A stretch of DNA of 10,656 nt from NCBI GenBank assembly GCA_027053075.1, contig JALUEE010000083.1, positions 1 to 10,656 on the forward strand, read 5' to 3'. Source of the DNA: a candidate division WOR-3 bacterium. GTDB lineage: Bacteria; Hydrothermota; Hydrothermia; B15-G9; WFZT01. The position numbers and the translations under genes are program-made. This document shows positions 108-10,656 of the stretch, one piece after another. The notes beneath the pieces were generated by a model, which was given only the letters and a program-made list of their open reading frames with translations, had not been told where the DNA came from and did no database searches. Within the stretch, counting starts at the first letter, position 1, and every line of letters begins with the position of its first letter.

Positions 108-136
108 TTGACAGGTCTATACTGGTTTGTTATATT
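108..136 (+). promoter_or_regulatory. Sigma70-type promoter for the 167-2962 unit
   Basis: Consensus -35 TTGACA (108-113), 17-bp spacer, -10 TATATT (131-136) with an extended -10 TG at 128-129. Shine-Dalgarno GGAGGT (155-160) precedes ATG 167. Confidence 0.8.
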
Positions 137-166: not shown

Positions 167-1345
167 ATGGCTGTTAAAATGCATTTTAACTACAAAGACG
201 TCCCGAGAGCCGCAAGATTTGGCTTCAGTGCTAAGAAAATTTATGTTCAATTTCTGGGATTGCTGGTGGGGACGATTCTCTACTCAATTTTCGCTTACAT
301 CGGCTTTTTAGCTTCAGGATACTCCATTACAGAGGTCTGGGATACCTTCCACTACGTGCCAATTCCCATAGGTGAACCCCTTACATTCTGGGGTTACGTG
401 TTCCTCTACACTGGTCTCGCTTTATTTGTTATTGTTGAATTTCTCTTCGGTGTAGCCATTTCAAAGATAACATACGAGCAGCTCAAAGGCGATGAATTTT
501 ACGAGATAAAGAAGGCACTTAAGTTCGCATTTACCGAGGGAAGAGCAGCGGTATTTACACCTATTACGATAATTCTCGTCATCATTTTCATCCTTCTTGG
601 AGGCGTTGTCCTTGGTTTGATTGGGAAAATCCCCTGGGTGGGTGAGCTCGTTCTGCTACTCATGAGTGTTCCTGTCGTGTTTACCGTTGTCTTTATAGTC
701 TATCTCTTCTTTGCCCTTATTCTTGCATACTATCTCGTCGCTCCTATCGTCGCAGTTACCAATTCAGACACATTTGACGCACTATTTGAGCTCTTCTCGA
801 CTCTCAACGACCAGAACTGGCGTTTTGTAGCCTACGAGGCTTTCCTCTACGTAATAAAGCCCATAGCGTTTGGCATATTTGCCTGGGCTATTGCAAAAGG
901 ACTTTACATCGCACATTGGGTGCTTTCAGCAGGCTGGCTTATGGGAGATAAGTACGTTAAGATCGAGAAAGCTGCACTCTCATATCTACCAAGCCATCCG
1001 GCTTTATACGTGTTCGAACCTGTTTTACGGATAATAGGTGCCACTCCTCTGCTCTATCCTCAGCCCGTTGCGAACCTTACTGTTCCAGAGGCAATTGTGG
1101 GATTTCTCTTTGGAATACTTCTTTATTTCATTATTTTCGTTGCGCTTTCCTACTGGGGAGCTATTCATTGGGCCGGAAATACACTCATTTTTGTTGTGCT
1201 GGCCAAGAAAAAGGATGATATCAATTATCTCGAGGTAAAAGAGGAGGAAGAAGAGTTCGAGGAAACATTTGAAGAAGAAAGTGAGGGTACTCAGGAAGAG
1301 AGTTTTGAAGAAGGGAAAGAAGAAACAGGAGAAAGCGAGAGTTGA
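167..1345 (+). CDS. Hypothetical polytopic membrane protein (392 aa) with a very acidic C-terminal tail
   Basis: Long ORF with strong RBS and promoter. It has multiple hydrophobic segments (roughly 6-8 TM helices), and the last 37 aa contain 20 Glu. The helix-loop pattern loosely recalls DUF4013/GPDPase-membrane-domain-type proteins, but no family is confidently recognised. Confidence 0.85.
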   Translation: MAVKMHFNYKDVPRAARFGFSAKKIYVQFLGLLVGTILYSIFAYIGFLASGYSITEVWDTFHYVPIPIGEPLTFWGYVFLYTGLALFVIVEFLFGVAISKITYEQLKGDEFYEIKKALKFAFTEGRAAVFTPITIILVIIFILLGGVVLGLIGKIPWVGELVLLLMSVPVVFTVVFIVYLFFALILAYYLVAPIVAVTNSDTFDALFELFSTLNDQNWRFVAYEAFLYVIKPIAFGIFAWAIAKGLYIAHWVLSAGWLMGDKYVKIEKAALSYLPSHPALYVFEPVLRIIGATPLLYPQPVANLTVPEAIVGFLFGILLYFIIFVALSYWGAIHWAGNTLIFVVLAKKKDDINYLEVKEEEEEFEETFEEESEGTQEESFEEGKEETGESES

Positions 1346-2103
1346 TACTGTGCGAATTTTTCCCTGATGTCTGCAAGGGCATTGAGTTTAAGAAGGGCAG
1401 AATAAAGGAAGTTTATTCAATTGATCGAAGCGAAGTTCTGGAATTTTTAAAAAAGAAGAGAAAACTGGTAAGGGGAATCCTGATAAATCCAGGGGAATTA
1501 TTTTACGAGGTTACCGATAAAAAGTTCAGCCGCATTGCAAAAAATATAGTGGATGAACAGTTTCCGGATATAAAGGAAAGGAGATGGCAAAAGTTTGAAG
1601 ACCTGAAGGGGAGAATACATATCGCATCCATCGATGGAACGGAGCTTGATTTTGTTAGAGAATTGGTAAAAACGTCCAGGGCCCAGTGTGAGATTATAGA
1701 TGTAAGCGCCTTTAACGTCACCAACTTCGTCATAAAGTTCTATGAAGGGATAAAAAATGGTGTTGTCTTGAACGTAACAGACGAGGTTACTTACGCCATC
1801 TATGTCAAAAAGAGGATGCCATTCTGGGGCAATAGTTTCCCTACTTCAGAATTCCCTGAATTTTTGAAGAAGCAGATCAACTACGTTTTCTCGGCTGTTC
1901 CAGAGGTCAAGGACTCTTTTAAAATTTATGCGAATTTTACATCGGCCAGCGTTGTCCAGGACCTTGGTAATCTAAAGGAGAATCTGAAGTTTGATATTGT
2001 TCCCATTGACCCTACAGGGATCGCTAAAAATCTCAAAAAATCTACGGACGAGTTACCATCAACATTTACCGCCCTCATAGGGCTTTCATTGAGGTTTCAA
2101 TAG
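1342..2103 (+). CDS. Degenerate PilM / GspL-cytoplasmic-domain-like actin-fold protein (253 aa)
   Basis: TTG start overlaps the upstream TGA, with AGGAG at 1327-1331. PilM-like segments appear in the correct order: N-terminal ILCEFFPDVCKGIEF (cf. xGxDIGxxxIKxVEL), IIDVSAFNVTN (cf. xIDVxxFALxN), VVLNVTDEVTYAIYVKKRMPFWGNSF (cf. ALVDIGAxxTxIxIxxxGxPxFxRxI) and C-terminal PSTFTALIGLSLR (cf. PxFAVAIGLALR). The CDS is confident; the family call is moderate. Confidence 0.6.
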   Translation: MILCEFFPDVCKGIEFKKGRIKEVYSIDRSEVLEFLKKKRKLVRGILINPGELFYEVTDKKFSRIAKNIVDEQFPDIKERRWQKFEDLKGRIHIASIDGTELDFVRELVKTSRAQCEIIDVSAFNVTNFVIKFYEGIKNGVVLNVTDEVTYAIYVKKRMPFWGNSFPTSEFPEFLKKQINYVFSAVPEVKDSFKIYANFTSASVVQDLGNLKENLKFDIVPIDPTGIAKNLKKSTDELPSTFTALIGLSLRFQ

Positions 2104-2104
2104 C

Positions 2105-2254
2105 ATGTTAGAATTTAATTTTTTAAAGGGAAATAAAATAGCCGCTAAAAGTAAAGGTAAGGCCGGGAGTAAAAAACTCCTGTGGCTTATACTTATTCTC
2201 ATAATTCTTCTTGCTGTTTATGCCTACATGAGCGGATTTTTGAAGGGATTCTAA
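2105..2254 (+). CDS. Small single-pass membrane protein (49 aa), PilN N-terminus-like; not in the ORF track
   Basis: Translated by hand: MLEFNFLKGNKIAAKSKGKAGSKKLLWLILILIILLAVYAYMSGFLKGF*. RBS GAGGT at 2091-2095. It starts 1 nt after the upstream stop and ends 3 nt before lepB, filling the gap exactly. It has a basic N-region and one hydrophobic helix, and MLEFNFL resembles the PilN MIxINLL(P) motif. Confidence 0.75.
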   Translation: MLEFNFLKGNKIAAKSKGKAGSKKLLWLILILIILLAVYAYMSGFLKGF

Positions 2255-2257
2255 AGG

Positions 2258-2962
2258 ATGTCGAGTAAAGTTAAAACTATCATCTGGACCATCGTTGTCA
2301 TAATACTGATACGTGCAGTTTTGGTTTATCCCTATGTAATTCCTTCAGGTTCAATGGAGGATACACTACTTCCTGGTGATGTGCTTCTCGCACTAAAATT
2401 TGTTTACGGAGTCGATATCCCCTACACAGACGTAAGAATTGCCCAATGGAGAAAGCCCAAAAGGGGAGATATCATCATTTTTAAATACCCAGTAGATGAG
2501 AGGAAACATTTTGTAAAACGCTGCATCGGTGAGCCAGGAGACACAATTGAAATTCGGAATAAAGTGGTCTACATAAATGGCAGGAAACTCAACGAGCCCT
2601 ATGCAGTGCACAAAGACCCTCACGTATACCCATCGAGGTATGACCTGACAAACAATCCATGGGCTCAAAAACTGTATCAGAAGAGCTGGGAAAATAGAGA
2701 ATTCATGAATGATCCCACTGTTCGCGACAATTTTGGGCCAATAGTCGTGCCCAAAGGCACAGTTTTTGCTATGGGTGACAACCGGGATTACTCATACGAC
2801 TCAAGGTTTTGGGGGCCTGTCCCCTATAAACTTGTCATCGGGATTCCCTTTATCATTTATTTTTCATACAATCCGAGTGCACCCTGGAGTAAGCCCTGGG
2901 AGAAGATTCGCTGGAGCAGAATTTTCGCCGTTTATGACATGGGCTTCGGCAAAATAAGATAG
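2258..2962 (+). CDS. lepB: Signal peptidase I (S26 family)
   Basis: N-terminal TM anchor, catalytic Ser box IPSGSMEDTL, RGDIIIF, catalytic Lys box FVKRCIGEPGD, and box E GDNRDYSYDSRFWG. Confidence 0.97.
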   Translation: MSSKVKTIIWTIVVIILIRAVLVYPYVIPSGSMEDTLLPGDVLLALKFVYGVDIPYTDVRIAQWRKPKRGDIIIFKYPVDERKHFVKRCIGEPGDTIEIRNKVVYINGRKLNEPYAVHKDPHVYPSRYDLTNNPWAQKLYQKSWENREFMNDPTVRDNFGPIVVPKGTVFAMGDNRDYSYDSRFWGPVPYKLVIGIPFIIYFSYNPSAPWSKPWEKIRWSRIFAVYDMGFGKIR

Positions 2963-3024: not shown

Positions 3025-4926
3025 ATGCTTGAGAAAATGGTAAAAGTTGAAATTGCAGGCTCCAAAAAGGATGTGGACGCACTGCTCAAAGAAATTTACA
3101 AATATGGCGTGCTGCATCTTGAAGAGCTTCCAAAAGACGATCCCAATATCAAGCACATTGAGCTTTCTTCTGATGAAATTGAGAAACTAAAAAATTTCAG
3201 GGGATACCTTAACGATCTTAAGGAAATTGTTGACGAGCTCGGATTGAGCTCAGAGGGAACCCCGGAATTCAGGGGTGATGAGAAAGAGCTGAAGGACAAA
3301 ATTGAGCAGATCAGGACAGAATTTAAGGAGATCGTTGAAGAAGAGAGAAGGATAAAAAGTGAGGAAAGACTTCTCAACGATTATAAAAAGGCCCTTCTCG
3401 CTCTGAAAGACTTGATCGCTCAGTACAAAGGCACTGAAAAACCAGGCTTTATAGGCATTTCAATTTCTAAGAGCGAAGCAAGGATTCTCGAATATTTAAA
3501 GGAATTGATAAAAGCAAAGCTTGGGGACATTGAATTTGAGATCATATCCACTGATTTAAGTGGTGATAGACTCGCAGGGCTTGTAATTGCCCCTGAAGAT
3601 AAGATTGAGGAGATTTCGAAGATTATCTGGAATGAGGGGATCAGTGAACTCAAAATTCCTGAGAAGTACAAAGACCTCTCCATTGAAGGCATGGTAAGTG
3701 CTCTTGAAAGTGATCTTGCCCGCATTCCCGAGCGACTCGAGGCAAATAGAAAGAAACTCGAAGAATTTAAGTCTCGATATGGAAAAACTATCCTCGAAAT
3801 GCTGGATTACGTTCAGGAAGAGGTGGAGGTTTTAGAGGCAAAAGAAAACTTCATCGGGCAGACAAAGTTCCTGTATTTTCTATGGGGATGGGTTCCAGAG
3901 CCTGAGTACAAAAAGTTTGAAAACTATCTTAAAAAGAATTTCAAAGGGAGACTGGTGTCAAAAGATATAACACCAGATAAACATGAGTATTCGAAGGTTC
4001 CGGTGAAGTTTAAAAACCTTTCGATTTTCAGACCTTTTCAATTGCTTCTTTCCATCTTTCAGCCGCCAATTTATGGCACCATAGACCCGACTCCCATGCT
4101 GTATATATTCTTCCCCATCTACTTTGGCTTTATGCTTGGAGATTTCGGATATGGGGCAGTGGCCCTGCTTCTTTTTGGAATGCTTTATCTTAAGGCAAAA
4201 AAGGGAAGCGTTCTTCAGCAGGTTGCAATTATTTTTCTATGGACGTCCCTCTGGACGATAATATTTGGCCTGTTTTACGGTGAGGCCTTCGGAGACCTTG
4301 CGGAAAAGCTTGGAATGCATCCTCTTGTAATTCACAGAATGCATGAGATTAAAACGATTCTCGTTGTAGCTGTGCTGTTCGGGGTGTTGCAGGTGGTGCT
4401 TGGCGTATTCCTTGGCTTTGTCAATAACCTGCGACTCGGTCACATAAAACACGCTAAATATGAATTTGCGAGATTTATAGGGCTTGTAGGGCTTTCTATC
4501 TCATTTATCGGCCCAATCCTTATGCTGATCGGAGGATGGCACGGATACCCGAAAATTCTTATAGAAATTGGGATTGCACTTCTTGTTATAGCAATTCCTG
4601 CAGTGGCAATTCTTCACAACTTTATAGCCCCGATTGAGATTCTCTCTGCAATGGGTAATATGTTCAGCTTTGCACGTTTGATGGCCATCGGACTCTCATC
4701 CGCCATTCTTGGTATGATTGCAAACATGTTTGGCGGCCTGATACCAAATCTAATTTTTGGCTTTACAGTCGCGTTTTTATTCCATTTATTGAATTTGATC
4801 TTAGGGCTTTTTGACCCCACCATACAGGGGCTCAGGTTGCAGTTTGTAGAATTCTTCTCAAAATTCTACATTTCTGGAGGAAAGAAATATAATCCATTTA
4901 AAAAAGGAGGTAGCCATGGTTCGTAA
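3025..4926 (+). CDS. ntpI: V/A-type ATP synthase subunit I (a subunit)
   Basis: Soluble coiled-coil N-terminal half, then GWVPE, PIYGTIDPTP, FGFMLGDFGYG, the essential-Arg motif SFARLMAIGL, and LRLQFVEFFSKFY. Confidence 0.97.
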   Translation: MLEKMVKVEIAGSKKDVDALLKEIYKYGVLHLEELPKDDPNIKHIELSSDEIEKLKNFRGYLNDLKEIVDELGLSSEGTPEFRGDEKELKDKIEQIRTEFKEIVEEERRIKSEERLLNDYKKALLALKDLIAQYKGTEKPGFIGISISKSEARILEYLKELIKAKLGDIEFEIISTDLSGDRLAGLVIAPEDKIEEISKIIWNEGISELKIPEKYKDLSIEGMVSALESDLARIPERLEANRKKLEEFKSRYGKTILEMLDYVQEEVEVLEAKENFIGQTKFLYFLWGWVPEPEYKKFENYLKKNFKGRLVSKDITPDKHEYSKVPVKFKNLSIFRPFQLLLSIFQPPIYGTIDPTPMLYIFFPIYFGFMLGDFGYGAVALLLFGMLYLKAKKGSVLQQVAIIFLWTSLWTIIFGLFYGEAFGDLAEKLGMHPLVIHRMHEIKTILVVAVLFGVLQVVLGVFLGFVNNLRLGHIKHAKYEFARFIGLVGLSISFIGPILMLIGGWHGYPKILIEIGIALLVIAIPAVAILHNFIAPIEILSAMGNMFSFARLMAIGLSSAILGMIANMFGGLIPNLIFGFTVAFLFHLLNLILGLFDPTIQGLRLQFVEFFSKFYISGGKKYNPFKKGGSHGS

Positions 4927-5221
4927 AGTAGGAATCATCCTTGGAGCAATATTGGTAGTAATTTTAGGAATTACAGGGGTGGCATTTGCTCAGGAGGCAG
5001 CAAATGCAGCAAGGAGTTGGGCACTTTACATCGGTGCATCTCTCGCAATTGGACTGCCTGCTCTTGCCACAGGTTACGCACAGGGTAAAATCGGTGCGGC
5101 AGGTGCCGGGACAATTGCAGAGAAGCCAGATATGACAGGTTCAGTCATCATTATGATCGCTATCCCTGAGACAGCTGTAATTCTCGGATTCGTGGTAGCA
5201 ATCCTTCTCTTTGTACTGTAA
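4916..5221 (+). CDS. ntpK: V/A-type ATP synthase subunit K (proteolipid c), single hairpin with N-terminal signal peptide
   Basis: Gly/Ala-rich helix GYAQGKIGAAGAGTIAEKP, ion-binding Glu in IAIPETAVILG, and an N-terminal leader ending AFA|QE. It overlaps ntpI by 11 nt and has RBS AGGAGGT. Confidence 0.95.
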   Translation: MVRKVGIILGAILVVILGITGVAFAQEAANAARSWALYIGASLAIGLPALATGYAQGKIGAAGAGTIAEKPDMTGSVIIMIAIPETAVILGFVVAILLFVL

Positions 5222-5802
5222 TGGGAAGAGACGACATAAGAAAAATCGTTATAGAAAACGCCGAAGAAGAAGCGCGAGCGATACTTGATGAGGCACGTCA
5301 GAATGTTGAAAAAGCTCTTGAAGAGGCCAAAAAAGAGCTCGAAAAAATAAAAAATCAGGAAGAGGCCAGATATCGTTACTGGGAACAGCTTGAGAGGTCG
5401 AGGCAGATTGGAAAGGCATTACAGATAGAGAAGGACCTGCTTCTTAGGGCGAAACACCGTGTAATTGAGGACATCATAAAGAGATTCCGTGAAGACTATA
5501 AAAACATATCGCCGGAGAGATACAGAGAGATTTTGAAAAATCTATTCGTGGAGGCGTACAACGAGGTTAAAGGCGGGGATCTAACAGTTTATACAAGTGA
5601 AAAAGACAGGAGCACCCTTGAGAAGATATTAAAAGAAATGGGGATAAAAGCTCGTCTCGAGACCAAAAAAGAAAAATTCGATGGTGTAATCATAGAGGAC
5701 AAAAACAGGGGATTTTTGATCTACAACACCATCGAAAATAGACTCGAGCGGGCGAGGGAGATACTTCTTGAGGAATTCAGTAAAATTTTATTGGGAGAAT
5801 AG
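5221..5802 (+). CDS. ntpE: V/A-type ATP synthase subunit E (peripheral stalk)
   Basis: N-terminal charged coiled coil (IENAEEEARAILDEA) and C-terminal GVIIE...IYNTIENRLE motif. TAATG coupling to ntpK and canonical I-K-E order. Confidence 0.9.
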   Translation: MGRDDIRKIVIENAEEEARAILDEARQNVEKALEEAKKELEKIKNQEEARYRYWEQLERSRQIGKALQIEKDLLLRAKHRVIEDIIKRFREDYKNISPERYREILKNLFVEAYNEVKGGDLTVYTSEKDRSTLEKILKEMGIKARLETKKEKFDGVIIEDKNRGFLIYNTIENRLERAREILLEEFSKILLGE

Positions 5803-7361: not shown

Positions 7362-9479
7362 ATGGCACTAACCCGCGATAAAGTTATAAAAACCCTCAAA
7401 AAATGCCGAAGGAAATACGTTTCAACCAACACACTTGCCAAAAAACTGAGGCTCAAAAAGGACGGAAAAAAGCAACTTAAAAAGATCATCAATGAACTCA
7501 TAAAAGAAGGCTCAGTAGTTCAAAACAAAGACGGTAAGGTGGGATGGGCCGAGAAAATTGGCATCCTTAAAGGTAAAATTCAGAGGTTCAAAGAAGGATT
7601 CGGTTTCTTTCTCACACCTGAAGGGGAGGAGGATATATTTATAGCTCCTTCAAATATGAAGGGAGCACTCTCAGGGGACACGGTACTTGTTCAGGTCATT
7701 TCAAGAAGAAAACGAAGGAAACCCGAAGGCAGGGTAATTAAAGTAGTTGAAAGAGCCAAAGACCGGTACGTCGGTACGTTTTACGGCACGGCCAGGCGTG
7801 GGGAAGTCGAACCTGACGACCCCTCGTTACCACAGAGAATCCCAGTCGCAAAAGGTAAAACAAAAAATGCCAAGGATGGCTATAAGGTTATATTTACTGT
7901 TGTTGAGAAGAGGAAAAAACTTTATGCCGAAATTGTTTCAGTAGCGGGTCCGGAGGATGATCCAAATACTGACCTGATTGTCGTCCTCAAAAAATACGAC
8001 TTGAATCCTGAGTTTCCACCGCAGGTAGAGGAAGAGGTCGAGAACATAGAAATGCCAGAATACACCCCGTCTTCTCATAGACTGGACCTGAGGGACAGGC
8101 TAATTTTCACTATCGACCCGGTAGATGCCAAGGACTTCGATGACGCCATTTCGATTGAAAAAACAGAGAGGGGCTATAAACTCGGTGTTCATATTGCAGA
8201 CGTCTCATTTTTTGTCAAAGCCAAATCTGCTACCGACATTGAGGCACTTTCGAGAGGAACATCTGTTTATCTTGTGAACTTTGTCGTGCCCATGCTCCCC
8301 CATAGACTCTCAAGCAACTTGTGTTCGCTTGTACCCGGCGAGGACCGCTTCACAATGTCAGTTTTGATGGAGTTAGACCTTGAAGGTAATCTAATCAAGA
8401 GAAAGTTTAAAAAATCAGTAATTCGCTCAAAGGCTCGCCTGACCTATGAGGATGCTCAAATGCTCCTTGATGGCGAAGACTTGCCTGATGATAGCCATTC
8501 CATCTTTGCCTCAAAAGATGATTATGCCAGCGTCAAGGAGGCACTTAAACACGCGCTTGAGCTTGCAAAAATCCTGAGAGAAAGGCGCTGGGAGAGAGGC
8601 AGCCTCGATTTTGACCTGCCAGAGCCCGAAATTACTCTCTACCCTTCTGGCAAGGTGGCCTCAATTAAGCCTGCTGTACGAACATGGAGCCATAAACTTA
8701 TTGAAGAATTCATGATCAGGGCCAATGAGGCGGTCGCCGAATACTTCTCCAGCAGGGGATTGCCCACCATTTACCGCGTTCACGAGCCCCCTGATGCCGA
8801 AAAATTGAAAACATTTCTCATATTTGCAGAGAGTCTACTCGGGCAGAAATTCGATATCAAAGACATAACCCCCAAAACCCTTCAGCAGGTTCTTGTAAAA
8901 GTCGAAGGTAAACCGGAAGAGGCTTTACTGAACTACATGCTTTTGAGGTCTTTAAAAAGGGCACGCTATTCTGTGGAAAACGTCGGGCACTTTGGCCTTG
9001 CATCTGAAAATTATCTGCATTTCACGTCTCCCATAAGAAGATACCCTGATCTCGTTGTTCACCGACTTCTCAAATATGCTATCAAAGGAAAGCCGAGAAA
9101 AAGCGAGTCCTGGATTGAGTACCTTACCTATGTGGCGGAGCGTGCCTCTGAGCGGGAAAGAATCGCTGAAAGGGCCGAATTTGACCATATTGATTACAAA
9201 GCAATGGATTTCATGAAAAGTAAAATCGGGGAGATTTTTGAAGGATTGATCACTCATATCACATCAAATGGATTTTTTGTTCAGCTCAAAGAATTCCTTG
9301 TAGAAGGATTTGTAAATGTTGATAGCCTTGGGGGAAATTACATTTACGATCCTGAAAGATATGAATTGAGGGAGACAAGAACACAAAAAAGCTTTAAAAT
9401 TGGCCAAATTGTCAGGGTAATGGTGGTCAAAGTTGATAAGTGGATGAAAAGGCTGGACCTGATAATAAAGGAGGATTAA
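7362..9479 (+). CDS. rnr: Ribonuclease R
   Basis: N-terminal HTH, cold-shock domains (GFGFF...DIFI), RNB catalytic TIDPVDAKDFDDAIS, VHIADVS, LIEEFMI, HFTSPIRRYPDLVVHR, and a C-terminal S1 domain. Confidence 0.96.
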   Translation: MALTRDKVIKTLKKCRRKYVSTNTLAKKLRLKKDGKKQLKKIINELIKEGSVVQNKDGKVGWAEKIGILKGKIQRFKEGFGFFLTPEGEEDIFIAPSNMKGALSGDTVLVQVISRRKRRKPEGRVIKVVERAKDRYVGTFYGTARRGEVEPDDPSLPQRIPVAKGKTKNAKDGYKVIFTVVEKRKKLYAEIVSVAGPEDDPNTDLIVVLKKYDLNPEFPPQVEEEVENIEMPEYTPSSHRLDLRDRLIFTIDPVDAKDFDDAISIEKTERGYKLGVHIADVSFFVKAKSATDIEALSRGTSVYLVNFVVPMLPHRLSSNLCSLVPGEDRFTMSVLMELDLEGNLIKRKFKKSVIRSKARLTYEDAQMLLDGEDLPDDSHSIFASKDDYASVKEALKHALELAKILRERRWERGSLDFDLPEPEITLYPSGKVASIKPAVRTWSHKLIEEFMIRANEAVAEYFSSRGLPTIYRVHEPPDAEKLKTFLIFAESLLGQKFDIKDITPKTLQQVLVKVEGKPEEALLNYMLLRSLKRARYSVENVGHFGLASENYLHFTSPIRRYPDLVVHRLLKYAIKGKPRKSESWIEYLTYVAERASERERIAERAEFDHIDYKAMDFMKSKIGEIFEGLITHITSNGFFVQLKEFLVEGFVNVDSLGGNYIYDPERYELRETRTQKSFKIGQIVRVMVVKVDKWMKRLDLIIKED

Positions 9480-9482
9480 GCC

Positions 9483-10070
9483 ATGAGGGGTACCAGAAAA
9501 GGAGGGGTACCAAAAATCAAGGATGAAGTTTTCCTGGAATATCTGGATTATGATGTTGATGGTAAAAAATGGTTTGCATTCTATACACGCCCGCAGCAAG
9601 AGAACAAGGTAGAGAGATACCTAACTGACAGGGGTATCAAGGTCTTTGTTCCAAGAGCTCCCAAATACCTGAATGTAGCAGGCAAAAGGAGGCTGGTGAA
9701 GGCTCCCCTATTTAGAAGTTATGTATTTGCTAAACTTCATTACAAAACTGACGAATACTACCTTGCCCTTGATGCTCCCGGAATAAGCACTATTATACAT
9801 AAAAAAGGCATTCCCCAGCCGATCCCGGAAAAAGAGATGACATCGTTGATAACCGTGGTAAATAGGGCAAGAGGCAATATCCTCGAACACCCTTTCTTGA
9901 AATTGGGGCAAAGGGTGATAGTAGTCGAGGGTCCATTAAAAGGCGCGGTGGGGGTGATAGAGAAGATCGATAAGGACAAAACCCTGTTCTTTGTAAATAT
10001 TTCTCTCCTCAAACGGTCGGTCTCGGTACCTTTACACCCTCGGATGGTTGAAAGATACCGGGGTGAGTAG
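9483..10070 (+). CDS. Specialised NusG paralog (UpxY/RfaH/LoaP-class transcription antiterminator)
   Basis: NGN domain WFAFYTRPQQENKV...VFVP...PLFRSYVF, PQPIPEKEM, and KOW motif GQRVIVVEGPLKGAVGVI. It is not in the secE-nusG-rplK context. RBS AAGGAGG lies at the end of rnr. Confidence 0.9.
   Translation: MRGTRKGGVPKIKDEVFLEYLDYDVDGKKWFAFYTRPQQENKVERYLTDRGIKVFVPRAPKYLNVAGKRRLVKAPLFRSYVFAKLHYKTDEYYLALDAPGISTIIHKKGIPQPIPEKEMTSLITVVNRARGNILEHPFLKLGQRVIVVEGPLKGAVGVIEKIDKDKTLFFVNISLLKRSVSVPLHPRMVERYRGE
9485..9516 (+). repeat. Imperfect tandem direct repeat, 17-bp period
   Basis: GAGGGGTACCAGAAA (9485-9499) and GAGGGGTACCAAAAA (9502-9516) are 14/15 identical, and each carries the palindrome GGTACC. 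Confidence 0.7.
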
Positions 10071-10076
10071 TATAAT
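10048..10076 (+). promoter_or_regulatory. Near-consensus sigma70 promoter overlapping the 3' end of the NusG paralog
   Basis: -35 TTGAAA (10048-10053), 17-bp spacer, perfect -10 TATAAT (10071-10076). RBS AGGAGGT (10098-10104) precedes ATG 10112. Confidence 0.8.
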
Positions 10077-10111
10077 TTAGAACCAATAAAAATTAAAAGG
10101 AGGTAAAAATT

Positions 10112-10656
10112 ATGGCAAAAACAACTTTCGCTGAAGAAATATATCTGAGAGCGCTGACAGGAAAGGTAGTTGGAGAGCATGTTCTTGGTATTTACAACAA
10201 GGTTGCTGTCATATCCGTAAAAAACATTATCTGTAGCTCAATCAGTGCGGCTGCTGAGGCTGCTTTTGTAATGAAAACTCAGGGAAGAGCTGCACATTTT
10301 ATCGTGGAAGAAGGAAACGCTGAGGATGTGGCAAAGGAAGTTGCGAGGTTTGAGCCCAACGCAGTGATCCTGATGTTCGGTGGTGAAACTCCTATCGAAG
10401 AGACAAAGAAGCTGTTTGTTGAGACCCTGAAGGCACTCTCGGCACTGGACCTCGATGCGGATATCATTGTCCATGTCAGGATTTTTGCGGCAGGTGGACT
10501 TGCTGAAGCGGTCAAAGACAAGGACATCGCTGAGTTCCTGAATGACAGAGAAGTTTACGTTTACACTGTGGACTTTGACGGAGGATTCATTATCCTGAAT
10601 GACGTATTTCTTGAGGAGAATGGCGAGATTGTTCTCTCCAAGCTGAGTGAGATTCC
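10112..10656 (+). CDS. Hypothetical soluble alpha/beta protein, truncated by the window edge (at least 181 aa); not in the ORF track
   Basis: Open frame from ATG 10112 to the window end: MAKTTFAEEIYLRALTGKVVGEHVLGIYNKVAVISVKNIICSSISAAAEAAFVMKTQGRAAHFIVEEGNAEDVAKEVARFEPNAVILMFGGETPIEETKKLFVETLKAL... Perfect RBS and its own promoter. Confidence 0.88.
   Translation, partial: MAKTTFAEEIYLRALTGKVVGEHVLGIYNKVAVISVKNIICSSISAAAEAAFVMKTQGRAAHFIVEEGNAEDVAKEVARFEPNAVILMFGGETPIEETKKLFVETLKALSALDLDADIIVHVRIFAAGGLAEAVKDKDIAEFLNDREVYVYTVDFDGGFIILNDVFLEENGEIVLSKLSEI

Follow-up and report, generated by a model that had tools for sequence, protein, structure and literature searches.

The locus and its genes

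The window (the whole stretch of 10,656 nt analysed here) carries four forward-strand genes that overlap or sit 1-3 nt apart, encoding a polytopic membrane protein, a short PilM-like protein designated PilM2, a 49-aa microprotein, and signal peptidase I (LepB) (Table 1). The four genes likely form one operon behind a sigma-70-like promoter candidate, the latter chosen by consensus match alone (7 such sites versus 6.1 in shuffled sequences). The 392-aa membrane protein is present in 62 of 64 genomes of the class and is the constant upstream neighbour of the PilM2 module; its closest ESM Atlas clusters are unnamed ones from Planctomycetota and Fidelibacterota. The lepB gene adjoins the module solely in this genus, and other neighbours are found in six genomes of the sister families f2 and f3. 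A second lepB paralogue (contig C55, positions 11672-12274, 53% identical) occurs in 5/6 genus genomes and has no counterpart detected in the sister families at a threshold of E≤1e-20.

Table 1. Coordinates (positions in the window) of the operon candidate and its signals
Feature	Position	Strand	Description
sigma-70-like promoter candidate	108-136	+	TTGACA-17-TATATT, 11/12 match, TG extension
polytopic membrane protein	167-1345	+	392 aa, acidic tail, without Pfam family
PilM2	1342-2103	+	253 aa, actin-like fold, without ATP-binding motifs, ~45 helical residues short
GAGGT, Shine-Dalgarno-like	2091-2095	+	9 nt ahead of microprotein ATG, within last PilM2 codons (Leu-Arg-Phe)
microprotein ORF	2105-2254	+	49 aa: PilN-type N-terminal motif (residues 1-8), Lys-rich linker, TM helix 25-43, 6-residue tail
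AAGGGA (Lys-Gly codons of microprotein)	2243-2248	+	candidate lepB Shine-Dalgarno, 9 nt ahead of lepB ATG
lepB, signal peptidase I	2258-2962	+	Peptidase_S26, E=1.9e-46

Translation and hydropathy bear out the features that a sequence-only reading had ascribed to the microprotein, i.e., the start MLEFNFL (MLEFNFLK with the eighth residue), a Lys-rich linker (7 Lys in residues 1-25) and one transmembrane (TM) helix, followed by the C-terminus KGF. Kyte-Doolittle hydropathy averaged over 19 residues peaks at 2.63 (residues 25-43), a value reached by 4 of the 3908 ATG-started ORFs of 40-60 aa in the genome, the microprotein included. Since seven K/R residues lie ahead of the helix and one behind it, the charge distribution points to a single N-in TM helix. 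Pfam searches with the microprotein returned TM-type noise only.

The microprotein ATG lies 1 nt past the stop codon of pilM2, and the clean end described previously was confirmed, the stop codon (2252-2254) being separated by 3 nt from the lepB ATG at 2258. The same reading gave the ORF its own ribosome-binding site: the GAGGT is there at a suitable distance, but it lies inside PilM2 codons. Although GAGG is kept in 5/5 genomes compared, its conservation is confounded with that of the Leu/Met-Arg codons of PilM2, and because of this overlap a ribosome-binding role is inseparable from coding constraint or translational coupling. At the other end, AAAGGA, AAAGGT or AAGGGA is found at the equivalent place before lepB in 5/5 genomes; the Lys-Gly codons of the microprotein thus likely double as the lepB Shine-Dalgarno sequence, which may explain the conserved terminal KGF.

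Conservation and selection

The microprotein ORF was found in all six genomes of the genus with a length of 47-49 aa and the same neighbours on both sides (in one of them, G004, the locus is split across two contigs), and the MLEFNFLK start and terminal KGF are common to all six. Aligning five genomes gave 18 invariant columns; 16 of these are degenerate, and synonymous variation is seen in 15 of the 16. Nei-Gojobori counts for the same five genomes gave pN of 0.08-0.38 versus pS of 0.60-0.93, with pN well under pS in 10/10 pairs, dS being mostly saturated; this and the uniform length answer in the affirmative the question of conservation and dN/dS left by the sequence-only reading. The pN of PilM2 is in a similar range (0.13-0.29), and that of lepB is lower (0.03-0.13). 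Contigs from four other DNA studies contain five strain variants in the microprotein, four synonymous and one missense (Ala-to-Ser), and no indel, stop or joint was found across the ORF in these contigs. Judged by this substitution pattern, the microprotein ORF is a real conserved gene under purifying selection.

Three explanations were rejected: a chance ORF, in view of the genus-wide conserved sequence and the synonymous variation; misassembly, in view of the contigs from four other studies that are intact across the ORF; and a recent strain-level deletion, in view of the short form in six genomes and the same intact contigs.

One further explanation would make the ORF a relic whose reading frame persists solely because it couples translation to lepB and houses the lepB ribosome-binding site, as its spacing of 1 nt from pilM2 and 3 nt from lepB and the Lys-Gly codons at the expected Shine-Dalgarno place might suggest. 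We regard it as highly improbable: the first eight residues and the hydrophobic helix are conserved despite near-saturated synonymous sites, pN stays far below pS in every pair, and this residue-level conservation of motif and helix is not explained by translational coupling alone.

PilM2, a short paralogue of PilM

As a single sequence PilM2 has no Pfam match and falls below PilM_2 detection, and its AlphaFold model is of low quality (pLDDT 59, falling below 50 in the N-terminal lobe). The model matches actin-like proteins (BT_3980, EutJ, PilM and MreB; best Z 9.2, PilM 5eou 7.6), and in such fold searches PilM ranks no higher than MreB, BT_3980 and others. A 27-row profile that includes distant orthologues finds Myxococcus PilM (3jc8_Ma) at E=5.5e-9, the sole PDB match better than E=0.4, and hhalign aligns the profile to the PilMN protein of the same genome with a probability of 93%. 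In the ESM Atlas PilM2 falls mostly among unnamed clusters, a PilM cluster ranking 17th (score 0.93). The earlier assignment of the upstream protein as PilM-like therefore stands, and on the strength of sequence homology and the modelled actin-like fold PilM2 is a PilM paralogue.

In a quick tree the PilM2 rows are separated from 19 canonical PilM proteins by one branch (SH-aLRT 99). The paralogues are 200-265 aa in length. By simple pattern counts the adenosine GG motif is present in 0/27 PilM2 versus 19/19 canonical PilM, and the phosphate-1 motif (DxGS) in 1/27 versus 19/19; the C-terminal GLxLR helix is retained in most PilM2, including that of this genome. ATP binding by PilM2 appears unlikely because the adenosine motif is missing, the phosphate-1 motif is nearly always missing and ~45 helical residues are lost.

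Searches with genus-only queries found no PilM2 relatives outside the genus, and synteny with the gene for the 392-aa membrane protein was required to reach them. In this way PilM2 was found in the genus of the short form (f1, 6/6 genomes) and in the families f2 (2/2), f3 (4/4), f6 (8/8) and f12 (4/4). Other matches in 272 genomes of the phylum are weak (E≥2e-6), lie in frames of ~350 or 550 aa, and are canonical PilM where checked.

The canonical pilus operon

Contig C23 of the same genome carries a fused pilM-pilN gene followed by pilO, a gene for a PilP-domain protein, and pilQ. The fusion (8809-10461) joins pilM in frame to pilN and encodes 550 aa with PF11104, PF05137 and an internal TLINLSP. 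A genome inventory revealed one secretin, three ATPases that by score and length would be one PilB-like and two PilT-like, and two PilC-domain matches at contig ends; the genome encodes just one type IVa pilus system. Canonical PilM occurs in 39/64 genomes of the class, in long, fusion-sized frames in f1, f2, f3, f6, f8, f12 and two of three f9 matches, and separate from PilN in f5 and f11, where the unfused PilN starts with MIKINL[LM]P in 5/5 cases inspected.

Several side observations were made on this operon. Upstream of pilMN (7683-8807) is a gene for a 374-aa protein with an unusual pairing of MshEN/T2SSE_N (E=2e-17) and DnaA-type AAA+ (E=3e-16) domains. In the region 11028-12982, the canonical PilP has a signal-peptide-like start without Cys and carries an additional N-terminal domain ahead of the PilP domain at its C-terminus; the additional domain is AMIN-like by eye without a Pfam match, and the 400-aa PilQ has no AMIN match, so that AMIN may have shifted from PilQ to PilP. 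In f2, f3, f6, f8, f9 and f12, and not in this genus, a lipoprotein-like gene of 135-181 aa is located between pilMN and pilO.

Longer orthologues in related families

The gene following pilM2 outside the genus is longer, 111-156 aa counted from the first start codon, in all 18 genomes of f2, f3, f6 and f12. This long form consists of a PilN-type motif, one helix and a terminal domain of ~60 residues. A motif followed by a helix comes directly after PilM2 in 24/24 PilM2 genomes, and the motif pattern L-D/R/K-L/F-N/D-F is common to short and long forms, its last Phe being invariant in 22/22 rows. In a profile alignment of the short and long forms the probability is 92% over only six columns, to which the shared helix and synteny are added.

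The terminal domain was identified by profile and structure. The top three PDB sequence matches of a 17-row long-form profile are PilP (E 0.012-0.032). A model of one long form (genome G054) has a pLDDT of ~90 across the terminal domain, which superimposes on the homology region (HR) of GspC (3oss_C) with Z 9.1 and an rmsd of 2.0 over 60 residues; its nine best structural matches are GspC/PilP/GspB-type HR domains (including LspC and PulC) plus one Dot/Icm chain, and unrelated folds score Z 5.0 or less. Foldseek agrees on the HR domain, yet with E-values of at least 0.049. By these sequence matches and the model, the periplasmic domain of the long form is a PilP/GspC-HR beta-domain and not the ferredoxin-like domain of PilN.

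A third gene follows the long form in 18/18 genomes and encodes a protein of 161-285 aa with a signal-peptide-like start and without a secretin domain. Its similarity to AMIN is weak (E=0.0012 and 0.025 in two of seven proteins scanned, below the cut-off), and it matches PilQ (3jc8_Qa) at E=0.021; a possible N0-like end is unsupported by profile comparison, the N0 alignment having a probability of 0.2%.

Direction of the truncation

A profile of the third gene finds 18/18 genomes in f2, f3, f6 and f12, of which 15 were used to build it, and has no match in the six genomes of the genus (82-96% complete). No remainder of the HR domain was detected elsewhere in the studied genome, where the long-form profile matches canonical PilP only. 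The PilM2 tree contains three lineages and leaves the relation of short to long forms unresolved. The tree of the neighbouring membrane protein (a quick tree of 29 rows, midpoint-rooted, with SH-aLRT only) groups the five short-form rows with the long-form family f2 and the module-less f9 (support 97), and nests this clade in a wider one with the long-form families f3, f6 and f12 (support 89). In GTDB, f1, f2 and f3 belong to one order and f6 and f12 lie outside it. Given this nesting and the GTDB ranks, the short form is most simply read as the product of a single old truncation of a PilN-motif/TM/PilP chimera, retained by selection, and the truncation most simply predates synonymous-site saturation in the genus.

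The sequence-only reading had proposed a PilN that lost its ferredoxin-like domain, and had taken the tight packing of the genes as an argument against a recent truncation. That the loss is not recent agrees with the genus-wide occurrence of the short form (6/6 genomes). The other elements have to be revised: packing is no argument against truncation as such, as relatives carry a 111-156-aa gene and the tree nests short among long forms, and what the longer relatives (18/18) carry is a PilP/GspC-HR domain. A truncated canonical PilN is thus rejected.

Comparison with known systems

With PilN (T. thermophilus 2YCH, P. aeruginosa 5EOU) the microprotein shares the gene position right after a pilM homologue, a basic linker and one TM helix. 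Its N-terminus, claimed to be PilN-like, agrees with the PilN motif in part: it is in register with MIKINL[LM]P, read in the unfused PilN of five genomes of the class, and keeps the hydrophobic pattern and the Asn, but Pro is absent and Phe replaces Leu; in 10 of 17 long orthologues the Asn is changed to Asp. The microprotein differs from PilN in that it has no coiled coil and no ferredoxin-like domain (PF05137, matched in this genome by the C23 PilMN fusion only) and ends six residues past the helix. Nor is pilO its neighbour: lepB follows it here, and in relatives the following gene codes for an exported AMIN-like protein. The long orthologues terminate in an all-beta PilP-type domain, and the adjoining PilM2 lacks ATP motifs. 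The microprotein would therefore work like the N-terminus of PilN while failing PilN membership, having neither ferredoxin domain nor PilO.

The divergence of the motif from canonical PilN is one of three observations consistent with a peptide that is translated and membrane-inserted and acts apart from PilM2, e.g., on LepB, another membrane protein or the main PilMN; the others are the switch of neighbour to lepB in this genus and a C-terminal SGxxKGF that is new and invariant. We consider such an independent role improbable. The best-conserved part is the ancestral N-terminal motif, which is common to long forms that have no lepB link, and the motif site of the main PilM is likely occupied in cis by TLINLSP.

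The long orthologues share with GspC the layout of a short cytoplasmic tail, a TM helix and an HR domain, and differ from GspC and PilP by the PilN-type N-terminal motif, by their position after pilM, and by the next gene, which encodes the 161-285-aa exported protein without a secretin domain. The 49-aa microprotein has no HR domain at all. The GspC HR domain, a structural homologue of PilP, binds the N0 domain of the secretin (PMC3169554).

PilM2 together with the peptide would equal the cytoplasmic domain of GspL or BfpC, i.e., an actin-fold domain tethered by one TM helix, but here it is split in two genes, without a periplasmic domain and with no T2SS genes nearby. GspL, like PilM2, presumably lacks ATP binding and a subdomain. 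GspL was not among the listed fold matches of the PilM2 model, which is a poor one. PilMN is orthologous to GspL, and GspL serves as the anchor of the traffic ATPase (PMC4471445).

Bacteroides BT_3980 (PDB 3HRG), a 257-aa actin-like protein of unknown function, is similar to PilM2 in length and is the top Foldseek match (E 4.6e-7, Z 9.0), but the 27-row PilM2 profile, which finds PilM instead, does not match its sequence at E≤10. A literature search, outside which most subscription papers lay, returned no description of such a module, a second PilM, a truncated PilN or the motif string.

Proposed function

We propose, with a probability of roughly 60%, that the microprotein is an N-in single-pass anchor that holds PilM2 at the inner membrane via its PilN-like motif. 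Selection in the genus has kept exactly the motif and the helix, adjoining PilM2. Two findings on canonical PilM are relevant here: the short cytoplasmic tail of PilN binds the IA-IC cleft of PilM (PMC7613929), and in Thermus the binding and stimulation of PilF by PilM do not depend on ATP binding (PMC6325625). Several points weigh against the anchor reading: the divergence of the motif from canonical PilN, the six-column extent of the short-to-long profile alignment, the low quality of the PilM2 model, the poor resolution of short and long lineages in the PilM2 tree, and the chance that the terminal KGF is retained for ribosome binding at lepB.

The ancestral module would have comprised three genes, for PilM2, a motif-TM-HR protein and an exported AMIN-like protein whose end may be N0-like. 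Its order (M, N-motif, P-domain, AMIN-like) matches pilMNOPQ and suggests that it arose by streamlining a second pilMNOPQ operon; it may have linked cytoplasm to periplasm without a secretin of its own. In this genus a rearrangement beside lepB would have deleted everything beyond the helix, and the surviving pair would resemble the GspL cytoplasmic domain plus a bare anchor. Since the main PilM already has the PilN motif in cis, the most plausible client of the pair would be the motor of the only type IVa pilus system of the genome, with the pair serving as an accessory dock; it is homology alone that ties PilM2 to the pilus motor.

The peptide might also anchor PilM2 in a pair that was diverted from pili to another use, such as a cytoplasmic scaffold with the co-transcribed 392-aa membrane protein. 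The module always lies directly behind the gene for that protein and away from pilus genes, and the pilus operon of the genome is complete without it. Co-option also has a precedent in the flagellar cage of H. pylori, where PilMNO (PMC10823254) resembles the present case in being encoded by remote pilM/N homologues outside a pilus operon and without a PilQ of their own, but retains complete periplasmic domains in PilN and PilO and serves the flagellum. A search for FliG gave no match in the 95%-complete genome studied here, most of the 62/64 class genomes with the membrane protein have no PilM2, and 24/24 PilM2 genomes also encode canonical pilM, though these kin are not independent; repurposing thus seems to us unlikely, if less so than a peptide acting apart from PilM2.

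The anchor reading can be extended to the class as a whole. Tentatively, and with more doubt than confidence, we suggest that the class has a second, undescribed secretin-less alignment module (ATP-less PilM, PilN-motif/TM/PilP chimera, AMIN-N0 stub), which in one genus may have been reduced to an anchor and an actin-fold protein, a free-standing dock or regulator of pilus motor ATPases without periplasmic connection. The loci form a natural deletion series of PilMNOPQ, from the full operon through a three-gene chimera to a two-gene cytoplasmic stub, alongside a fused PilM-PilN system. A working stub would mean that PilM-type proteins can play a part for which a membrane tether is required and neither ATP nor a secretin link, and the views of PilMNOP as "ATPase dock" and as "trans-envelope connector" would become separable. 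All the parts are known folds, and the pair is a variant of the pilus alignment complex with a putative function; it adds a conserved unannotated microprotein of traceable origin, and a 49-aa peptide with a 253-aa protein is a simple pair for testing.

Other features of the window

The contig opens with a perfect 17-bp G+C-rich hairpin (positions 1-37). Of a V/A-type ATPase, positions 3025-5802 encode subunits I, K and E only, with a Wza-like gene for polysaccharide export next in line; the operon of the ATPase is split. At positions 9483-10070, directly behind an RNase R-like gene, is the gene for a NusG/KOW protein, which we take to be possibly a specialised NusG paralogue.
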